Position numbers and translations under genes: made by a program. Source: an uncultured Treponema sp. (lineage in GTDB: Bacteria > Spirochaetota > Spirochaetia > Treponematales > Treponemataceae). Taken from it: DNA of 64,000 nucleotides. Below, piece by piece: positions 34,779-44,408 of this stretch. The DNA lies in contig ONHK01000010.1 of the NCBI GenBank assembly GCA_900317625.1, forward strand, positions 6,039 to 70,038. Reading direction: 5' to 3'. Below the pieces are notes generated by a model. That model worked only from the letters and a program-made list of their open reading frames with translations, was not told the DNA's origin and made no database searches. Every line of letters starts with the position of its first letter. Position 1 is the stretch's first letter.

Positions 34779-35183
34779 ATGGCTAAAAAATCTGCTATTT
34801 CGATTGGTAGACTTGTTCTTCAGATTGCTTTGGGCGTAATGCTCGCAGTTGCTGGTATCTGGGCTCTTGCAGGAAAAGGCGGAGACGATGCTTACAAGGC
34901 TTTGACTCATCTTATTAATGGTGATGCAGGAAAAGCAATTGGAATGATTTTTGCTGTAGTCGAATTGCTTGCAGGTATTCTTCTTGTTGTTGAATGTTTC
35001 GCTGGCGATAAATTTGGAAAATTTGACAACATTCTTGGATGGATTGTTATCATCGTTTGGATTGTTGCTATTGTTCTTATGGATTTCTTGAACGGAAACC
35101 TTGAAATCAGCAAACTTGAATGGTGGTATTCTCTTGCTGGGCATTGTGTAATTCTTGGCGCATTGCTTGCTTTGAATGACTAA
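34779..35183 (+). CDS. Four-TM membrane protein
   Basis: GGAGG RBS, hydrophobic segments, own terminator. Confidence 0.8.
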   Translation: MAKKSAISIGRLVLQIALGVMLAVAGIWALAGKGGDDAYKALTHLINGDAGKAIGMIFAVVELLAGILLVVECFAGDKFGKFDNILGWIVIIVWIVAIVLMDFLNGNLEISKLEWWYSLAGHCVILGALLALND

Positions 35184-35201
35184 TTTTTAGTTTTTTTCTA
35201 A

Positions 35202-35233
35202 AAAAAGCGGAAATCGGTTGGTTTCCGCTTTTT
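35202..35233 (+). terminator. Intrinsic terminator
   Basis: aaaaagcggaaa / tttccgcttttt. Confidence 0.75.
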
Positions 35234-35271
35234 CATTTTAAAATAGTAAAAAACATTCCGATAATAAAGAT

Positions 35272-35871
35272 ATGAAAAAAAATTTTGCTTTTTTTGCTTT
35301 TATGTTGATTTTTTCTTCTTTTTCTGTATTTGCGGAGAAAAATTTAGGTTCAAAAAATAAAATTATTGGATTTGACGTAGGGCTTGTGACTTGCATTCCT
35401 GTTTACGGCGATTCTTCTTCTCCGTATAAAAACCGGGTTATAATCGGAAGCGATGGGGATATTTCCTTGAAAGTTGGGGCGCCGCTAAAAATTCTTTTTG
35501 GTTATGATTTGATTGGCGACATAAATTGGGATAAAAATGAACATTCGAATCATCTTGATTATGCTTTTTGGACTGGAATAAAAGTTTATCCTGGTTTTGG
35601 CGGACTGAACGGTAGCCTTGCCTATGCTTTGGGGGCAAGAACTGATTTTATTGATGAAGAGATTTTTTATGAGGATGGTTCTTCCAGAAAACGTAGCGTG
35701 GTTGAGACCTCTGCATGGGGAAACGGATTTAAAATTGGTGTTGAATATGATTTTTTGTACAATTCTGATAAAAAAACATTGCCGGCGCTTGGATTTTTTT
35801 ACCGTTTAATGCCGCGTGGCAATAAAAATTATGATAATATTTTTGCCTTTTATATAAATATGGTTTTTTAA
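35272..35871 (+). CDS. Putative outer-membrane beta-barrel protein
   Basis: Signal peptide, amphipathic strands, terminal Phe. Confidence 0.6.
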   Translation: MKKNFAFFAFMLIFSSFSVFAEKNLGSKNKIIGFDVGLVTCIPVYGDSSSPYKNRVIIGSDGDISLKVGAPLKILFGYDLIGDINWDKNEHSNHLDYAFWTGIKVYPGFGGLNGSLAYALGARTDFIDEEIFYEDGSSRKRSVVETSAWGNGFKIGVEYDFLYNSDKKTLPALGFFYRLMPRGNKNYDNIFAFYINMVF

Positions 35872-35873
35872 TA

Positions 35874-35908
35874 AAAAAAATCTGCTGTGTATTACAGCAG
35901 ATTTTTTG
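35874..35908. terminator. Bidirectional terminator
   Basis: aaaaaatctgctgt / acagcagatttttt. Confidence 0.8.
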
Positions 35909-35924
35909 GTTTCATCATTGAAGT

Positions 35925-37457
35925 TTATCGTGCGTATTCAATAATTCTGGTTTCGCGAATCATTGTTATGCGGATTCGTCCAGGATATTTCAAGTCGTTT
36001 TCAATCTGTTTAGCAATATTGGAAGCAAGCTGTTTTACTTCATTGTCTGCAACTTTTTCATTGTTTACAAGAATTCTTAGCTCGCGTCCAGCCTGAATTG
36101 CATACGCTTTTTCAACTCCTTCAAATCCTTCCGCGATTGCCTCAAGGTTTTCAAGTCGTTTTACGTAGTTATCGATTGTTTCCCGACGAGCACCAGGACG
36201 AGCCGCAGAAATTGCATCTGCAATCTGAACAATAATCGCTTCGATTGTCGAGGCTTCTATGTCGTTATGATGTGCTGCAATTGCATTTACAACTCTTGAA
36301 TCTTCGCCCATTTTTCGTGCCATTTCCGCACCGACTTCCGCATGGTTCTGATCACTGTCGTTTTCTGCGCCTTTACCAATATCGTGAAGAATTGCGGCTC
36401 TTTTTGCAAGATCGCGGTCTGCACCGATTTCTGCGGCAATCATAGAAGCTACTGTTGCAACTTCTTTTGAATGAGAAAGAACATTTTGACCATAAGAAGT
36501 TCTGAAATACAAACGTCCAAGCGCACGGATTCCTTCCGTTGGCATATTGTGTATTCCCAAATCGAACAAAGCCTTTTCGCCTTCCTCATAAATCTTGTTC
36601 TGAATCTCGCGGGTTACTTTCTGAACGATTTCCTCAATTCTAGCCGGATGGATTCGTCCGTCAGAAATCAGTCGTTCCAAAGACTGCTTTGCAATTTCCT
36701 TTCTAACCGGGTCAAAACAAGAGATTACTACAGCTTCCGGTGTGTCATCAATTATGATGTCAACGCCTGTAAGAGTTTCCAGCGCACGGATGTTTCGTCC
36801 TTCACGGCCAATGATTCTTCCTTTCATTTCATCGCTTGGAAGCGAAACTGTTGTGACGGTAATGTCGCTTGTCGTTTCCGGCGCGATTCTCTGTATTGCA
36901 GTAACAAGAACTTCACGCGCTTTTTTCTCAGCTGTGATTTGAGCTTCCTGTTCAATTTTGTTCAGAAGAGCCTGTGCATCGTGGCGAGCATCGTTTTCAA
37001 GGTTTTTGATGATAAGATCTTTTGCTTCCTGTGCGGAAAGTCCTGAAATCCGTTCAAGTTCCTTGCGGTATTCTTCTTCCTGGGCTGTAACAACGGCTTC
37101 CCGCTTTTTCATTGCGTTAAGGCGTTCTTCACAGTCTTTTTCTCTTTTTTCAAGTTCAGCAGATTTTTGATCAACCAGTTCTTCTTTTTTGTTTACGCGT
37201 GCTTCATATCTTTGTACTTCTGCGCGGCGTTCACGGTTTTCTCTTTCTTGCTGGTTACGTTCACGAATGAGTTCATCTTTTGCGTTTAGCAAAATTTCTT
37301 TTTTCTGAGCTTCAGCTTCTTTTATTGCGTCCTGTTTTACACGTTCTGCTTTTTGTTCTGATGCAGATAGTTGAAATCTGGCGTACAGCCAGCGAATTGT
37401 CCATCCAAGAACGATTCCAACAATAGGGAGAATGATGAATAATAAAATATTCGGCAT
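35925..37457 (-). CDS. rny: Ribonuclease Y
   Basis: N-terminal TM, coiled coil, KH (KGRIIGREGRNIR), HD (LHDIGK); start at ATG 37457 with RBS. Confidence 0.97.
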   Translation of the reverse strand: MPNILLFIILPIVGIVLGWTIRWLYARFQLSASEQKAERVKQDAIKEAEAQKKEILLNAKDELIRERNQQERENRERRAEVQRYEARVNKKEELVDQKSAELEKREKDCEERLNAMKKREAVVTAQEEEYRKELERISGLSAQEAKDLIIKNLENDARHDAQALLNKIEQEAQITAEKKAREVLVTAIQRIAPETTSDITVTTVSLPSDEMKGRIIGREGRNIRALETLTGVDIIIDDTPEAVVISCFDPVRKEIAKQSLERLISDGRIHPARIEEIVQKVTREIQNKIYEEGEKALFDLGIHNMPTEGIRALGRLYFRTSYGQNVLSHSKEVATVASMIAAEIGADRDLAKRAAILHDIGKGAENDSDQNHAEVGAEMARKMGEDSRVVNAIAAHHNDIEASTIEAIIVQIADAISAARPGARRETIDNYVKRLENLEAIAEGFEGVEKAYAIQAGRELRILVNNEKVADNEVKQLASNIAKQIENDLKYPGRIRITMIRETRIIEYAR

Positions 37458-37580
37458 TTTTGTCTCCTCATTATTTTTGAAATAGTTCAAACCTTATTAT
37501 AAAATATGCGATATTCGTTGTCAAATGAAGAGCGATATATATGTAGAAAAATGTTGAAAAGTTTCGTTTTTTTCTGAAAT

Positions 37581-38321
37581 TTACATTGAAAAATCTTTTC
37601 CAAGATAAATTTCGCGGGCCAGTTCAGATTCAATGATTTCCTGTTTTGTTCCCTGAATCATAATCTGTCCTTTGTTTACAATTATTGCGCGGTCGGTTAT
37701 TTCAAGTGTGTCGCGGACGTTGTGGTCAGTGATTAGGATTCCGATTCCTCGTTTTGCCAAAAGACCAATCATTGACTTGATGTCGGCAACTGCAATCGGG
37801 TCGATTCCGGCAAAAGGTTCGTCTAGCAAAAGGAATTTTGGCTCAACAGCAAGCGAGCGTGCGATTTCTGTTCGTCTGCGTTCTCCGCCGGAAAGCGTGA
37901 AGGCATATTGTTTTCGGATTCGTTCAATCGCAAATTCATCAATAAGTTGTTCCAGGCGCTGCTTTTTTTCAGTTTTTGTAAGATCTGAGCGGGTTTCCAG
38001 AATTGACCAGATATTTTCTTCAACAGTAAGTTTTTTGAATACGCTTGGTTCCTGCGGAAGATAAGAAATTCCTTTTCTTGCGCGCTTGTACATTGGAAGC
38101 GGCGTTATTTGTTCATCATCAAGAAAAATTTCTCCGGCAGTCGGCTTGTAAAAACCTACAATCATATAAAATGTTGTGGTTTTTCCGGCTCCGTTTGGTC
38201 CCAAAAGTCCAAGGACTTCCCCAGACTGCATTGAAAAATCTATTCCCTGCACAACTTTTTTCTTTCCGAAACTTTTAAAAAGGCTGAATGCTTTTAGCGT
38301 GTGGATATTTGTTTCGTTCAT
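37581..38321 (-). CDS. lptB: LPS/glycolipid export ABC ATPase
   Basis: GPNGAGKT, YLPQEPSVF, LSGGERRR, ITDHNVRDTL. Confidence 0.95.
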   Translation of the reverse strand: MNETNIHTLKAFSLFKSFGKKKVVQGIDFSMQSGEVLGLLGPNGAGKTTTFYMIVGFYKPTAGEIFLDDEQITPLPMYKRARKGISYLPQEPSVFKKLTVEENIWSILETRSDLTKTEKKQRLEQLIDEFAIERIRKQYAFTLSGGERRRTEIARSLAVEPKFLLLDEPFAGIDPIAVADIKSMIGLLAKRGIGILITDHNVRDTLEITDRAIIVNKGQIMIQGTKQEIIESELAREIYLGKDFSM

Positions 38322-39136
38322 TCTGCTTTCTCCTGCGGGGTTGATTTTTCTGCGGAATCTGTGGAGTCAGAGGCGGCTGTTTCTGTGTTTTTTTCCTCAG
38401 TTTTTGTTTCTTCCGTAGATTCCTGGTTTTCTGGAGTTTTTTCTGTTGTTTCAGATTCGGCATTTTCCGCGTTTTCGGCTTCTTTTCCATCAGCTGCGGA
38501 TTTTTGCTCGTCAACTATTGAACCTTTTACGCGGCCATCCAGCGTTATTTCCTGCGATGTTAAATCCAATGTGATTTGCTGCGCGCGGAATGTGTCCTGT
38601 CCCTGTTTTATCTGTGAGTTTCCGCTTAGCTCAAGCATCTGGTCGTTTTTCCGGTAGATTGCGTAAGCCCCGGTGCAGATATTGTCTTTCTGTGTGAGTT
38701 CAATTTCAATCTGCATTACGGCGGTGTCTGTGTTCTGGTTATATTCGATTATCTGGGCTTTTGCATTGACGTTGTTTTTTGTGTCTTTTAAGTTTACGTT
38801 GTCCGAAAGTTCCGCGATTTTTGTTTCCCGGTCATATTTTAGTTTTTCACAGGTAAATTCAAGCTCTGATTCCATGTTTTTGCCTTTTATGTTTCCCTGT
38901 GCCTCGATGAAGCGGAAATTTTTCCCGGAAAGCCCGATTTGGTCTGCAAAGATTTCCATTGAATCTGTAAGTACGTATGCCTCGCCGGAAAGTGTTGTGG
39001 AATCAGACTTGTCGCCTACGATTCCTGTCATGCTGTCTGCTGAAAAAGTTATTTTTTCGGCACTTGCGGTTGCGGTGGCAAAAACTGAAGATAAGAAAAA
39101 GGATAAAATTGCGGTAAATTTATTGATTTTCTTCAA
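38318..39136 (-). CDS. lptA: LptA/OstA-like periplasmic protein
   Basis: Signal peptide, beta-jellyroll pattern, position between lptC and lptB; TTG start with GGAG RBS. Confidence 0.8.
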   Translation of the reverse strand: MKKINKFTAILSFFLSSVFATATASAEKITFSADSMTGIVGDKSDSTTLSGEAYVLTDSMEIFADQIGLSGKNFRFIEAQGNIKGKNMESELEFTCEKLKYDRETKIAELSDNVNLKDTKNNVNAKAQIIEYNQNTDTAVMQIEIELTQKDNICTGAYAIYRKNDQMLELSGNSQIKQGQDTFRAQQITLDLTSQEITLDGRVKGSIVDEQKSAADGKEAENAENAESETTEKTPENQESTEETKTEEKNTETAASDSTDSAEKSTPQEKAE

Positions 39137-39680
39137 TCTGCTCTCCGTCTTCATCTGAAATATATTGACCCGTAACAACACCGTTGAAAAGGAATTTCTT
39201 GCTTACTCCGCTTGCTGAAAATCCAGAGCCTTGTATGGTTGTGTTTCCTTTTTTGATTGTGACTGTATCATTTCTGCTGCTTGTAAGCTGTTCTGTTTTT
39301 CCGTTCCAGCGCAATGTGTCTGCGGAAACTTTTATGTCATCCTTCTTGTTTTCAATTTCTATATTGTCGTAAAGCGTGTATTCTTCAGTATCTGTGTTTG
39401 AGGAAAGCAAAGCGCACGAGCCTTGCGTTAAAAGATTTCCTTCTTTGTCCATAACCTGAAAATCCACATCTTTTGCGTACATTGATTTTCCGTCTGAATA
39501 TTGTTCCAGCCTGCTGGCCGAAAGATTCAGCGTTTTCTGGTTGTTTTCGTATCGGCTGTAATTTGCGTCCGTAAAAACGAATTCCGGCACATTGTCCTCA
39601 TCCTGATAGTTTGTGCCGTATTTTAGCGAACAGCCTACGAAAAAAATCAATGAAACGAATAACAAAAAGAGATTTTTCAT
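39120..39680 (-). CDS. lptC: LptC-like lipoprotein
   Basis: FVGC lipobox, ADTLRW..IQGSGF; start overlaps the pyrG stop. Confidence 0.8.
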   Translation of the reverse strand: MKNLFLLFVSLIFFVGCSLKYGTNYQDEDNVPEFVFTDANYSRYENNQKTLNLSASRLEQYSDGKSMYAKDVDFQVMDKEGNLLTQGSCALLSSNTDTEEYTLYDNIEIENKKDDIKVSADTLRWNGKTEQLTSSRNDTVTIKKGNTTIQGSGFSASGVSKKFLFNGVVTGQYISDEDGEQIEENQ

Positions 39681-41284
39681 TATTTGTTCAGCGCCGCTCC
39701 TAAAAATGCCGTAAAAAGCGGATGTGGTTTTGCCGGGCGGGAAACAAATTCCGGGTGATACTGAACCCCGACTCCCCATTTGTGGGTTTTCCATTCAAAA
39801 GCTTCAATTCTGTCATCATCTTCGGCAACTGCTGAAATAAGAAGTCCGTTCTGATTCATTATTTCAGAATATTTTTTGTCGAATGTATGCTTGTTTCTGT
39901 GTCGTTCTGTAACAGAAAGTTTTTTGTAAGCCTGATGAAGTTTTGTATCTTTTACGATTTTTACGCCAAGCGCACCTAGCTGTTCCGAGCCGGCAACTGA
40001 AAGTCCAGCCTGTTCTTCCGGAAGGCTGATGATTGCGTGTTCAGGGTTCTGGATAAATTCTGTGCTGTCCGCATCTGTCCAGCCAATCAAAGAGCGTGCG
40101 GTTTCTATTGCCATAAGCTGCATTCCGACATCAATTCCAAGGTAAGGAATATTGTTTTCGCGTGCAAATTTTACAGTTTTTAAAAGACCAAGGAAGCCAC
40201 GCTGGCCATAATTTCCTGGAATTACAATTCCGTCAACACCTTCAAAAGATGAAGAGATACTTTCTGTTCCTTCAAGAGATTCCGCGTCAACTTTTTTAAG
40301 TTCAAGCTGAGCGCCAAAAGAAGTTACTGCGGCGTGGAAAAGCGCTTCCCGCACCGACTTGAAGCATTCGTCCAGGTAATCTTTTTTGCCGACAATCGCG
40401 ATTTTGATTTTTGGACCATCTTCATTCAGTTTTTTTATAAAACTTGTCCACTGCCGGATGTTTGAATTTGCGGAATCTGTTTTTAATGCGAGTTTTTTTA
40501 CAATTGCCGCGTCAAGACCTTCCTTGTGAAAAAGAATCGGGATTTCGTAGATTGATTTTTCTACATTTGAAGAGGCAAAAACTGCGTTTGTTGAAACATT
40601 GCAGAAAAGCGCGAGTTTCTTGCGCATATCTGGCTCAATTTCCTTTTCGCAGCGGCAAAGAAGAATATCCGGCTGAATTCCTGCTTCCTGCAGCTGTTTT
40701 ACAGAATGTTGTGTCGGTTTTGATTTTAATTCTCCGCCGGTAATCACAGGAATCAGCGAAAGATGTATTGTACAGATTTCGTTTTTCGGTAGTTCATGAA
40801 CCATCTGGCGTCCAGCTTCCAAAAAAGGAATTGATTCTATATCCCCGACTGTTCCGCCGATTTCAACAATTACAACGTCAGCCTGAGTTTTTTGACCTAC
40901 TGAAAAAATTCTTCGTTTTATTTCATCTGTTATATGAGGAATTACCTGAACTGTGCGGCCGTTGTATCGTCCTGCGCGTTCATTTCTGATAACTTGATCG
41001 TAAACTTTTCCGATTGTTATGCAGTTGTCGCTTGTGATTGTAACACTTGTAAAACGGGAAAAATTTCCCAAATCCAAGTCTGTTTCTGCGCCATCTTCTG
41101 TTACATAGACTTCACCATGCTGAAACGGGCTGATGTTTCCCGCGTCAAGATTGATGTACGGGTCGCATTTTATCATGGCAATCTTTAAGCCATAACCTTC
41201 AAGAAGACTTCCAATAGTTGCAGATGCAACACCTTTTCCAAGACTTGAACAAACTCCACTAGTAACCAGAATGTATTTACTCAT
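39680..41284 (-). CDS. pyrG: CTP synthase with a degenerate glutaminase domain
   Basis: SSLGKG, DPYIN, HGEVYVTEDGAETDLD, KPTQHSV, QYHPEF; GIDVGMQ in place of GICLGMQ. Confidence 0.92.
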   Translation of the reverse strand: MSKYILVTSGVCSSLGKGVASATIGSLLEGYGLKIAMIKCDPYINLDAGNISPFQHGEVYVTEDGAETDLDLGNFSRFTSVTITSDNCITIGKVYDQVIRNERAGRYNGRTVQVIPHITDEIKRRIFSVGQKTQADVVIVEIGGTVGDIESIPFLEAGRQMVHELPKNEICTIHLSLIPVITGGELKSKPTQHSVKQLQEAGIQPDILLCRCEKEIEPDMRKKLALFCNVSTNAVFASSNVEKSIYEIPILFHKEGLDAAIVKKLALKTDSANSNIRQWTSFIKKLNEDGPKIKIAIVGKKDYLDECFKSVREALFHAAVTSFGAQLELKKVDAESLEGTESISSSFEGVDGIVIPGNYGQRGFLGLLKTVKFARENNIPYLGIDVGMQLMAIETARSLIGWTDADSTEFIQNPEHAIISLPEEQAGLSVAGSEQLGALGVKIVKDTKLHQAYKKLSVTERHRNKHTFDKKYSEIMNQNGLLISAVAEDDDRIEAFEWKTHKWGVGVQYHPEFVSRPAKPHPLFTAFLGAALNK

Positions 41285-41421
41285 AAGGATATATTTTTTC
41301 ATTATGTTGTGTTTTAGTCAATGATTCGCAGCGATTTAAAATTGTAAAAAAACTGAAAAATTATAACAAAAATTTAAAGGTGAATTTGCCTGTAATCAAA
41401 ACTAAGTGTATAATTGCATAT

Positions 41422-42237
41422 ATGAACGATGCTCTTAATGATGCGGATTTTGAGAAGTTTAGAAAAACAATTTACGATGAAAGCGGAATAACATTTTCTG
41501 CGACAAATCGACCGATTCTGGATAGCCGCATAAAAGAAATTCTGCGTGAAAAGAAAATTGATACAGCGGCGGAATATTATGCGCTTATTCTAAAAGATCA
41601 CGAAGAAATGAAAAGAATGTTGGATTCTGTTACAACGAATCTTACACGGTTTTTTAGAAACCAGCCGCATTTTGATGCTTTTGAAAAATATGTAATTCCT
41701 CATGTTCTGGAAGAAAAACGGAAAACTGGCGATAAAACTATCCGCGTTTGGAGTGCAGGCTGTTCAACTGGCGAAGAGCCATACACAATTGCTATGATTT
41801 TGAAAAGAATTCTTCCGCTTGGATACAATTTTACAGTTATGGCTTCTGATATTTCATTAAAATCATTGATGGTTGCCCAGCAGGGATTTTACGCGGAAAA
41901 CAAAGTTGATGGAGTTCCGCCGGATTATCTTGCCCAGTTCTTTACAAAGAAGGAAAAAGGCTACCAGATTAATAAAGAGATAATGGATTCTGTAAAATTT
42001 GATTATCACAATTTAAAGAATGACTCTGGCATGCGGAATATTGATGTTGTTTTTTGCCGCAACGTTATGATTTATTTTGATGAGGCGGCGCAGCTTGTGG
42101 TTCTGGACAGATTCTGGAATTCAATGGCAAAACATTCGTATCTTTTTATAGGTCATTCAGAATCTTTGTTTGGAATGAACACAAAATTTGAATTCCTGAA
42201 AACTGACTGGGCTTGTCTTTACCAGAAAAATATTTAA
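41422..42237 (+). CDS. cheR: Chemotaxis methyltransferase
   Basis: TTNLTRFFR, WSAGCSTGEEPY, CRNVMIYFD, GHSES. Confidence 0.97.
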   Translation: MNDALNDADFEKFRKTIYDESGITFSATNRPILDSRIKEILREKKIDTAAEYYALILKDHEEMKRMLDSVTTNLTRFFRNQPHFDAFEKYVIPHVLEEKRKTGDKTIRVWSAGCSTGEEPYTIAMILKRILPLGYNFTVMASDISLKSLMVAQQGFYAENKVDGVPPDYLAQFFTKKEKGYQINKEIMDSVKFDYHNLKNDSGMRNIDVVFCRNVMIYFDEAAQLVVLDRFWNSMAKHSYLFIGHSESLFGMNTKFEFLKTDWACLYQKNI

Positions 42238-42267
42238 TCCGCTTGAATTTGTCTTTTGAGGAAAAAA

Positions 42268-43467
42268 ATGGAGCTTAAAGATTCAAAATACGACACACTG
42301 AAAGTTCAGATTTGCGATGATTCAGCTTTGATGCGGAATCTTGTTTCCAGAATTATAAATGACACTCCAGGAATGGAAGTTGTTGGAAAAGCGATGAACG
42401 GAAAAATGCTTCTTGATGAAATTCCGTTTATAAAGCCGGATGTTGTTCTTCTTGATATAGAAATGCCTGTTATGACCGGAGTTGAATTTCTTGAGGAACG
42501 TAAAAAACTCAAGTGGGATATTCCTGTTGTAATCCTTTCTTCAATTGCGACAAAAGGTGCTGCTGTTACCGTAAAGTGTCTTGAGCTTGGCGCAATGGAT
42601 TTTATCACAAAGCCGGGCGGTTCTGTAACAACAGAAGTCATGGACGTAAAAGAATCAATTATTGAAAAAATTGCTTCTTACGGCGGTTCTTATGCGCGCA
42701 GAAAAGGCAAAAAAATTCCATCCACAGATTTTTTCCTGCGTTCAATAAAAATGCGGGAAGCTGAAAAATTTGTCGCGAAGCAAAAAGGAACTGAGGAAGT
42801 TCAGGTGCCACTGGAACCGCTCTTGTCTGGTTGGAAAGAGCCGGCAAAAAAAGAACCTGTTGTGGTAAAGCCGCTTAGGGATGGCGGAAAAATTGAAATT
42901 ATTGCTATTGGAATTTCTACCGGCGGGCCGAATGCGCTTAGGGATGTTTTTAAGATGATTGATCCGCACTTGAAGCAGCCGATTCTTGTTGTTCAGCATA
43001 TGCCTGCAGGTTTTACCGCGGAATTTGCCCGGAGCTTGAACAGAATCTGTCCTTTGGAAGTTTGCGAGGCACAGGATGAAATGCCGATTGAGGGCGGTCA
43101 TGTTTATATAGCGCCAGGAAATTATCATATAATAGTAGAAGAACGAATCTCTGGAAACGTAATACGGACAACGCAGACAGAGCAAAGAAACGGACATCGT
43201 CCTAGCGCTGATGTTCTTTTTGAAAGCATTGCGTCTGTTTACAAAAATAATGCGCTTGGCGTAATTATGACAGGAATGGGGCGCGATGGGGCAGCTCAAC
43301 TTGCGGAAATGCGTAGGCAAGGAGCATGGACTTTAGGTCAGGATGAGGCTTCCAGCATTGTTTATGGAATGCCACGCGTCGGCTGGGAATTGGGCGGTGT
43401 TCAAAAGCAAGTTCCGCTTATGGAAATGGCGGATGAAATCAGTAGGCTTGCGCGCGAGCACTGTTAA
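42268..43467 (+). CDS. cheB: Chemotaxis methylesterase/response regulator
   Basis: Receiver domain plus GISTGG, VQHM, MTGMGRDG. Confidence 0.97.
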   Translation: MELKDSKYDTLKVQICDDSALMRNLVSRIINDTPGMEVVGKAMNGKMLLDEIPFIKPDVVLLDIEMPVMTGVEFLEERKKLKWDIPVVILSSIATKGAAVTVKCLELGAMDFITKPGGSVTTEVMDVKESIIEKIASYGGSYARRKGKKIPSTDFFLRSIKMREAEKFVAKQKGTEEVQVPLEPLLSGWKEPAKKEPVVVKPLRDGGKIEIIAIGISTGGPNALRDVFKMIDPHLKQPILVVQHMPAGFTAEFARSLNRICPLEVCEAQDEMPIEGGHVYIAPGNYHIIVEERISGNVIRTTQTEQRNGHRPSADVLFESIASVYKNNALGVIMTGMGRDGAAQLAEMRRQGAWTLGQDEASSIVYGMPRVGWELGGVQKQVPLMEMADEISRLAREHC

Positions 43468-43479
43468 ATTCTGTAAAAT

Positions 43480-43878
43480 CTATTGAATAATTTTTGTGAT
43501 TTCCAGTTTTACGATTGTCGGTGCTGTTCTTGATGATGCAATCGTAAAACTGCAGCTGATTAAAAAACAGATTGAAATAAAAATCGCCTTGAAAATTTCT
43601 GTACATTCAATTTTTAGAAGAGCTGCGATTTGCCCGGAAAAAATCAGTCCTGCTGCGGCACATAAAATTGGTATAAAAAGCGCAAAAATTCCGGCAATTG
43701 CTTCTTTTTTTTGCGGAAGTCCGATTGTTACTTTTGAACCTTTTTCAATTTTCAGTTTACGAGGATTGGAAACTTGAATGTTTGCCCTAAATTTCTTGTT
43801 TTTTTCAGAGTGGCTTTCCGGAGAAACTAGGATTGACTCATCATTTTGGATTTCAGTTACAATGTAGAGTTGCTTCAA
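43480..43878 (-). CDS. RseC-like small membrane protein
   Basis: Beta-rich N-terminus (GSKVTIG) followed by two TMs; TTG start with RBS. Confidence 0.55.
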   Translation of the reverse strand: MKQLYIVTEIQNDESILVSPESHSEKNKKFRANIQVSNPRKLKIEKGSKVTIGLPQKKEAIAGIFALFIPILCAAAGLIFSGQIAALLKIECTEIFKAIFISICFLISCSFTIASSRTAPTIVKLEITKIIQ

Positions 43879-44408
43879 ATCATTTCTCCTGTCTGTTTTA
43901 ATTCTTTCAGTCTTTTTGCACATTCATCAGCGCCGGTCTTGTTGCCCAGCTCTTTATATGTGTCGCGAAGATTATATAGCGCATCGTAATAATAAGGATT
44001 TACCATTACAGCGTTTTCAAACGCATCCGCGGCTTCTTTGTATGATTTCTGGCTAAAAAATATAACTCCAATGATATTTAAAAGATGGTAGTTTTCCGGG
44101 TTGATTTTTAAGCCATAAAGACAACATTCATGCGCTTCAATAAGATTTCCCTGGGAATACAAAATTGTTGCAAGTTCTTCTATTATTTCTGCATTTTCCG
44201 GTGAAAGTTCGTGTGCTTTTTCAAGACTTTCCGTTGCGCTTTCAAGATTTCCGGAGTCGCGCTGTGTCAAAGCAAGATTGAACCAAAGAAGAGAATTATT
44301 TTTTTCAATTTTTATTGCTTTTACAAAACAGGCGATTGCTTCTTTGTAAGAACCTGCATTTGCGAGTAAAATTGCCTGGTTGTTTAGTCGGGCTGCTGTT
44401 TCAATCAT
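43875..44408 (-). CDS. TPR-repeat protein
   Basis: Repeated A..F.KA....P / WFNL TPR pattern. Confidence 0.85.
   Translation of the reverse strand: MIETAARLNNQAILLANAGSYKEAIACFVKAIKIEKNNSLLWFNLALTQRDSGNLESATESLEKAHELSPENAEIIEELATILYSQGNLIEAHECCLYGLKINPENYHLLNIIGVIFFSQKSYKEAADAFENAVMVNPYYYDALYNLRDTYKELGNKTGADECAKRLKELKQTGEMI

Follow-up and report, generated by a model that had tools for sequence, protein, structure and literature searches.

What a CTP synthase can still do once the cysteine at the heart of its glutaminase site has been replaced is the question raised by a pyrG homologue of an uncultured rumen Treponema sp. The gene lies in a 64,000-nucleotide stretch of contig ONHK01000010.1 (assembly GCA_900317625.1, positions 6,039 to 70,038 of the forward strand), referred to below as the window, in which an open reading frame (ORF) of 540 codons runs from an in-frame ATG at 41302 to 39680 on the minus strand. 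Textbooks present CTP synthase as a glutamine amidotransferase, and no other is known to be regulated by GTP. In the window protein, an aspartate occupies the position of the catalytic cysteine, and the residues replaced are those required for glutamine hydrolysis and its control by GTP, whereas those kept are the ones required to make CTP from UTP, ATP and NH3. It is therefore probable, in our view, that this gene (the Asp gene, or Asp copy) encodes an ammonia-only, GTP-independent CTP synthase isozyme, the native gene having been retained in this form once a canonical copy had come in.

An earlier reading of this DNA, made from the letters alone (the sequence-only reading), had described the gene as full length, and this description holds. 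Both Pfam domains of the family are present (CTP_synth_N, PF06418, with 380.9 bits against a cut-off of 26.1 over profile positions 1-265; class I glutamine amidotransferase, PF00117, with 86.1 bits against a cut-off of 22.8), and the protein aligns end to end with the solved CTP synthases 9kao and 1vco (E 4e-149). Translation likely starts at Met7, giving 534 residues, because orthologues align from residue 3-7 onward. In the alignment, the aspartate falls exactly on the catalytic cysteine, NY on GF, and NKHT on HRYE; the motifs GIDVGMQ, PGNYG and ERHRNKHT and the retained HPE were all found where the sequence-only reading had placed them (Table 1). The two domains, the synthase residues and the tunnel residues Pro54, His57 and Val60 that characterise CTP synthases are thus in place, but the complete Cys-His-Glu triad, the PGGFG strand, and the GTP motif and cleft residues that characterise glutamine-hydrolysing members of the family are not.

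The aspartate codon is the same in contigs of two DNA and two RNA-library runs from four studies, and no contig carries a cysteine codon. Moreover, aspartate stands at this position in 116 rows of a 119-row alignment (the nearest clusters at 90% identity together with the window protein, an alignment also used for conservation and entropy), with asparagine in two and serine in one, and cysteine was found in none of the 120 nearest 90%-identity clusters of the protein database. Both GAT and GAC encode the aspartate across species. A sequencing error, against which the sequence-only reading had already argued, is thereby ruled out. A decaying pseudogene or an assembly artefact might be suspected because one orthologue is frameshifted near its C-terminus and because the gene has disappeared from about half of the genus, but its probability is negligible: about 80 genomes have an uninterrupted frame, four independent runs agree on the codon, the gene is present in complete genomes of cultured strains, and the ratio of nonsynonymous to synonymous substitution rates (dN/dS) is about 0.02. 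The genus survey, dN/dS and read contigs together refute this explanation. The window gene was also detected in bovine-gut and faecal metagenomes of several studies and in four metatranscriptome runs of two studies. A single RNA-library contig (38751-41269) covers lptA, lptC and pyrG with the aspartate codon. RNA-library contigs of both studies end at 41259-41269, near the 5' end of pyrG, whereas DNA contigs read through, which is a weak hint at real transcription.

The residues that have changed and those that have not are the main clue to function. Residue numbers follow E. coli PyrG (MG1655 gene) and were transferred by alignment. As the sequence-only reading had held for the main synthetase motifs, every synthase-site residue checked is present in the window protein apart from the conservative T188S. 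Among the 119 clade members, K18, K40, D42, D72, E140, D147, E149, K187, K189, Q192 and K223 are invariant, the exceptions at the synthase site being T188S and an occasional T191M, and the mean entropy of this site is 0.08. Of the ammonia tunnel, P54, E59 and V60 are kept in the clade, and H57 is kept in the window protein; E68, R356, G357, G360, R468, E403, Q383, H515 and E517 are likewise retained in the clade. This invariance of the synthase site, together with the retained tunnel, argues for an enzyme that still makes CTP.

The glutaminase site, on the other hand, carries the replacements C379D, G352N/S, F353Y, H469N/S, R470K and E472T, and the GTP cleft carries T51N, M52I, L109N, Y298K, E359L, G436A, T438S/I/V and R440Q/K. 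Several changes were thus found to accompany the loss of the nucleophile, as had been claimed, and they extend to Gly352, Arg470 and the GTP-activation motif, while synthase and tunnel are retained. In E. coli, Cys379 variants studied by Weng and Zalkin reportedly lose glutamine-dependent activity and keep NH4Cl-dependent CTP synthesis. The engineered E. coli variant G352P has no glutamine-dependent activity and almost full activity with NH4Cl (PMC9138612). The 104-110 loop, residues 352-360 and 429-440, and E68, R468, R470, T51 and M52 make up the lining of the GTP cleft, and GTP activation is mediated by Thr438 and Arg440 of the CTPS-specific motif GG(T/S)(M/L)RLG (PMC9138612). In the Asp clade, variability at positions 436 and 438 of the former GTP loop is among the highest of all sites (2.1-2.4 bits), so this loop appears to have been freed from constraint. 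The joint replacement of residues for glutamine use and for GTP activation argues for an ammonia-only enzyme, and the loss of the GTP-activation motif and cleft residues, which the sequence-only reading had overlooked, is the strongest argument added here for independence from glutamine. The laboratory variants are single mutations, whereas the Asp clade is natural, altered at many sites, maintained by selection, stripped of its GTP site and spread over many species.

It might be asked whether the aspartate itself, assisted by His and Glu, has taken over as the nucleophile of a glutamine-dependent CTP synthase. His515, Glu517, Gln383 and Glu403 are indeed retained, but the oxyanion and lid residue Gly352, the glutamine-binding Arg470 and the GTP-activation motif have all been replaced, and some members carry Asn or Ser at the nucleophile position. 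To our knowledge, there is no precedent for an aspartate nucleophile in class I amidotransferases, and this explanation is very improbable.

Compared with canonical PyrG (EC 6.3.4.2; E. coli 1S1M, T. thermophilus 1VCO, and 9KAO), the Asp copy has the same two-domain architecture and length. It is approximately 54% identical to E. coli PyrG in the synthase domain and keeps its synthase and tunnel residues, His515, Glu517 and Arg468, but it differs at C379D, G352N, F353Y, R470K, H469N, L109N, T51N, M52I and Y298K and has lost the GTP-activation motif. In the amidotransferase domain, its identity to E. coli is 36%, as against 50% for the canonical paralogue described next.

The idea that the window gene is the only pyrG of its genome did not survive. 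When the source genome (2.3 Mb, 88% complete) was searched by protein family, a second CTP synthase, named type B, was found adjoining guaA on contig C16 of this genome (G000), with all the canonical motifs (PGGFG, GICLGMQ, ERHRHRYEF and HPEF). The search for a second pyrG proposed in the sequence-only reading thus yielded a canonical copy, although nothing shows that the Asp copy is inactive. The two copies are 45% identical overall and approximately 53% identical in the synthase domain. Type B bears the general bacterial signatures GVVSGLGKG, DPG and GHYERF, and its nearest relatives in a search of 1.84 billion representatives reach only 52-55% identity under mixed labels, including metagenome-assembled genomes (MAGs) of Bacteroidales and Desulfovibrio. 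Type B sequences (L001, L030-L047) fall into two deep subclades, B1 and B2, of which B1 is confined to genomes that lack the Asp copy and B2 to genomes that have it; this split may reflect two separate acquisitions or an old paralogy. A loss of glutamine metabolism, considered as an explanation for the Asp copy, was rejected: two glutamine synthetases, AmtB and glutamate dehydrogenase are encoded in the genome, and GuaA keeps its cysteine. Because glutamine metabolism is intact, the Asp enzyme would be an addition and not a compensation. The presence of AmtB, glutamate dehydrogenase and glutamine synthetase also indicates that the organism handles free ammonium, which is consistent with an ammonia-only enzyme.

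This pairing is common in the genus. An orthologue of the Asp gene (62-98% identity) is present in 81 of 201 genomes, and all carriers except two incomplete MAGs have a second match, which is type B (approximately 45% identity) wherever it is listed. The alignment of Treponema PyrG proteins called for by the sequence-only reading bears out its description, since all 11 full-length same-genus orthologues that were fetched share the aspartate and the accompanying motif changes (GID[LV]GMQ, PG[NS]YG and ERHR[NS]K). Public entries of the clade include T. zioleckii and T. parvum and are annotated "CTP synthase (glutamine hydrolyzing)", an annotation that is probably wrong for more than 100 public proteins. 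When prokaryotes were scanned for the motif with each species represented by one genome, at least 119 loci were returned, 115 of those listed belonging to Spirochaetota; the matches listed include the cultured strains T. parvum ATCC 700773, T. saccharophilum DSM 2985 and T. socranskii ATCC 35535. Of 24 family genera that were sampled, eight contain the motif, and a reversed control pattern gave no match. A canonical, type B-like copy again accompanies the Asp copy in five genomes from four further genera, four of these genomes being 96-99% complete. Such a wide and stable distribution counts in favour of the ammonia-only isozyme. As regards the ammonia-rich gut niche proposed in the sequence-only reading, an NH3-dependent enzyme is the best-supported interpretation, but the clade is not restricted to the gut, as T. 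parvum and T. socranskii, both oral species, belong to it.

Genomes with only the Asp copy were also sought, and the sole candidates, G056 (69% complete) and G022 (92% complete, with a frameshifted gene), are too poor to show sufficiency. In G022, the Asp-type orthologue (L014, G022:C55:27793-29338) is interrupted near its C-terminus, either as a pseudogene or through an assembly error, and no type B copy was found in this MAG. Two contigs filed under Bacteroidota, from a 'Prevotella sp.' MAG (L147) and a 'Bacteroidaceae' MAG (L065), carry a Treponema Asp-clade pyrG with LGNFSRF and ERHRNKHT and are probably mis-binned. No pyrG match was found in 20 of the 201 genus genomes, some of them 98-100% complete (G003, G013, G014, G024, G093 and G203 are among the 20), and four of the 20 still gave none when searched again with the Pfam family; some Treponema lineages may thus depend on cytidine salvage.

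Which of the two copies is native can be read from phylogeny and gene order. In a maximum-likelihood tree of the synthase domain, the Asp clade is monophyletic (Shimodaira-Hasegawa-like approximate likelihood ratio test, SH-aLRT, 99) and nests together with the canonical PyrGs that other spirochaete families have as single copies (99), with type B outside; the tree of the amidotransferase domain gives the same grouping (100). The Asp clade also shares the spirochaete signatures GVCSSLGKG, DAG and GN[YF]xRF. In other spirochaete families, lptC and lptA likewise lie downstream of the canonical single-copy pyrG, and cheR precedes pyrG in three such loci, as it does in the window. It follows that the native spirochaete pyrG has its positional orthologue in the Asp gene, the order pyrG-lptC-lptA being ancestral. 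The coupling to lptC noted in the sequence-only reading is real, the stop codon of pyrG overlapping the start codon of lptC by one base (TAATG), but it is uninformative on function because canonical spirochaete pyrG has the same neighbours; for the same reason, a new envelope-related role suggested by this linkage was rejected.

Along the stem of the Asp clade, the amidotransferase domain accumulated 1.63 substitutions per site and the synthase domain 0.39, which points to a burst of remodelling confined to the former and followed by renewed constraint. The remodelling seems to have been stepwise, since M52 is still present in the more basal Asp copies of other genera, some of which retain E472 or R440. 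In three close species pairs, the overall dN/dS of about 0.02 given above splits into a synthase-domain value of 0.014-0.025 and an amidotransferase-domain value of 0.023-0.028, the latter matching the 0.016-0.023 of the amidotransferase domain in the canonical paralogue. Across 51 species pairs, the Asp copy diverges approximately 1.4 times faster than type B, and the ratio of amidotransferase to synthase divergence is equal in both paralogues (1.37 vs. 1.38). Strong purifying selection on both domains, as well as a stem-branch burst confined to one of them, supports an enzyme that has exchanged its nitrogen source and kept its synthase.

A second, unrelated occurrence points in the same direction. 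The PyrG of a Thermoguttaceae (Planctomycetota) MAG (L061, JAVBQW010000011.1, ORF from ~3475 on the plus strand) also carries aspartate in place of the cysteine. It has a non-spirochaete backbone, parallel changes at T51/M52, the oxyanion strand, H469 and the GTP motif, and a retained HPE, and it arose independently. As the only PF06418 match in its 5.3-Mb genome, for which no completeness is given, it counts in favour of an ammonia-only enzyme. A documented analogue is CPS1, an ammonia-only enzyme that takes up external ammonia and retains an inactive glutaminase-like domain with a Cys-to-Ser exchange (PMC4655335). In both cases, an ammonia-only enzyme would derive from a glutamine-dependent ancestor, and a class I glutaminase-like domain that lacks its nucleophile is kept beside an intact synthetase; the likeness is nevertheless one of function and not of synthetase homology. 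CPS1 belongs to another enzyme family and another domain of life and has serine instead of aspartate; it also gained an allosteric activator, N-acetylglutamate, whereas none is known for Asp-type PyrG.

The selective constraint on the amidotransferase-like domain invites a different interpretation, in which this domain has been repurposed and its pocket captures and deprotonates NH4+, hydrolyses a donor other than glutamine, or senses a ligand that controls the synthase (for example, by binding glutamine without hydrolysis). The mean entropy of the old glutamine pocket is 0.37, compared with 0.95 for the amidotransferase domain as a whole, and its residues are near-invariant in the 119 sequences (Asp in 116, E403 in 119, and K470, H515 and E517 in 118 each), even though the neighbouring GTP loop varies freely. 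In addition, dN/dS equals that of a working amidotransferase domain, the aspartate arose a second time in a planctomycete, and both of its codons are in use. However, the nucleophile position accepts asparagine and serine, position 353 varies, Gln383 is replaced by His or Pro in four members, and small polar residues may merely suit the strained turn of the nucleophile elbow. Aspartate is also a chemically poor nucleophile for amide hydrolysis, and the version based on NH4+ capture overlaps with the ammonia-only enzyme instead of opposing it. On balance, a repurposed domain seems unlikely, although less so than the other alternatives. Its specific form, in which Asp379, Glu403 and Glu517 together with His515 capture and deprotonate NH4+ at the tunnel mouth or process a nitrogen donor other than glutamine, is similarly doubtful. 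If it were true, Treponema, and convergently a planctomycete, would have made an ammonium-intake module from a glutaminase domain, which would represent a new functional class of amidotransferase domains.

The constant company of type B suggests yet another role, that of a non-catalytic or regulatory paralogue that forms mixed tetramers or filaments with type B and tunes its activity or assembly. CTP synthases are obligate oligomers, some of which form filaments (PMC9138612), and in good genomes the Asp copy always occurs beside a canonical one. Such a role is nonetheless improbable: the ATP-, UTP-, Mg- and CTP-site residues are invariant, which would be needless in a purely structural subunit, the synthase domains of the two paralogues have diverged to just ~53% identity, and the planctomycete enzyme appears to stand alone. 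It is the near-invariance of the pocket that keeps a working pocket under consideration, just as the absence of solo Asp copies keeps a regulatory partner under consideration.

For the ammonia-only isozyme that we favour, the following course of events can be proposed. A native spirochaete pyrG at the ancestral pyrG-lptC-lptA locus would have been the ancestor of the Asp-type enzyme, and a canonical glutamine-dependent pyrG of non-spirochaete type would have entered the lineage. The native copy would then have lost glutamine hydrolysis in a burst (Cys379Asp, Gly352Asn and Arg470Lys), together with the GTP switch that served this hydrolysis alone (Thr438, Arg440, Leu109, Thr51 and Met52). Its synthase domain would still phosphorylate UTP with ATP and then aminate it with nitrogen from free NH3/NH4+, which would enter via the remodelled amidotransferase domain, through either the former GTP cleft and vestibule or the old glutamine pocket, and pass down the retained tunnel (Pro54, His57 and Val60). 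The base of the GTP cleft has been proposed as the entrance for exogenous NH3, which GTP blocks, and GTP inhibits NH3-dependent activity; the entry of exogenous ammonia and the true role of GTP are still debated (PMC9138612). A division of labour with the canonical copy, for example between high and low ammonium, would be part of this picture.

Several observations weigh against this proposal. The Asp copy is never the sole pyrG in good-quality Treponemataceae genomes, which would also suit a copy that is regulatory or not essential. Of the 119 members, 18 deviate at the tunnel gate His57, and the pocket formed by Asp379, Glu403, Lys470, His515, Glu517 and Gln383 is conserved far beyond the needs of a dead site, a hint that it does more than act as a scaffold. 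Furthermore, canonical CTP synthase already uses NH3, so the benefit of a dedicated enzyme is unproven. RNA-library contigs, although those of two studies carry the aspartate codon, cannot prove transcription, the level of expression, or a ranking of the two paralogues.

Literature searches, from which most subscription journals were outside coverage, returned no natural Cys-less or ammonia-only CTP synthase and no Treponema pyrG paralogues. The family and chemistry of CTP synthase are known, and the phenotype was foreshadowed by laboratory mutants, but the natural paralogue pair of Treponema appears to be new. Within this context, the Asp clade, which includes cultivable species, could serve as an NH3-only scaffold of natural origin on which to trace how ammonia enters, and cultured strains with both pyrG genes make the hypothesis directly testable. 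The case would also illustrate how a native gene is re-specialised once a foreign canonical copy arrives, and for gut and rumen ecology it would be one more indication that anaerobes in habitats rich in ammonia circumvent glutamine as a carrier of nitrogen.

Table 1. Features of the Asp-type pyrG locus (window coordinates).
Feature	Position	Strand	Basis
Asp-type CTP synthase paralogue, 534 aa from Met7	39680..41284	-	Pfam and PDB CTP synthase alignment
Synthase (amidoligase) domain, ATP/UTP/Mg catalytic residues intact	40484..41278	-	Pfam, residues 9-273
DAGNISP: T51N and M52I at GTP cleft/NH3 entry; tunnel Pro54 kept	41126..41146	-	alignment
Class I glutamine-amidotransferase-like domain, predicted to be catalytically disabled, under purifying selection	39701..40369	-	Pfam, residues 312-534
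PGNYG for PGGFG: oxyanion/lid-junction Gly352 to Asn, Phe353 to Tyr	40205..40219	-	alignment
GIDVGMQ in place of GICLGMQ	40118-40138	-	sequence and alignment
GAT codon, Asp at catalytic nucleophile Cys379	40130..40132	-	alignment, runs, relatives
AGSEQLG for GTP-activation motif GG(T/S)(M/L)RLG	39974..39994	-	alignment
ERHRNKHT for ERHRHRYE: His469 to Asn, Arg470 to Lys, Tyr471 to His, Glu472 to Thr; Arg468 kept	39884..39907	-	alignment
HPE: triad His515 and Glu517 retained	39749..39757	-	alignment; 118/119 relatives
lptC, start overlapping pyrG stop (TAATG)	39120..39680	-	Pfam LptC, E 1.3e-11
lptA-like gene (OstA/LptA fold), acidic C-terminal tail	38318..39181	-	family match and synteny
lptB-like ABC ATPase, next in same-strand cluster	37581..38321	-	family match

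Some minor observations concern the surroundings of the gene. When 35000-44000 was scanned against Rfam, neither a riboswitch nor a leader RNA was found, and the only match was a sub-threshold small RNA. The 77-bp region between pyrG and cheR contains a TATAAT-like box, and this part of the window (41259-41379) is possibly a divergent promoter region. A 199-aa ORF at 35272-35871 on the plus strand, with no Pfam match, adjoins rny. The LptA-like protein ends in a tail of approximately 70 residues, which matches no family and is strongly acidic, with a high content of Glu, Thr and Ser.

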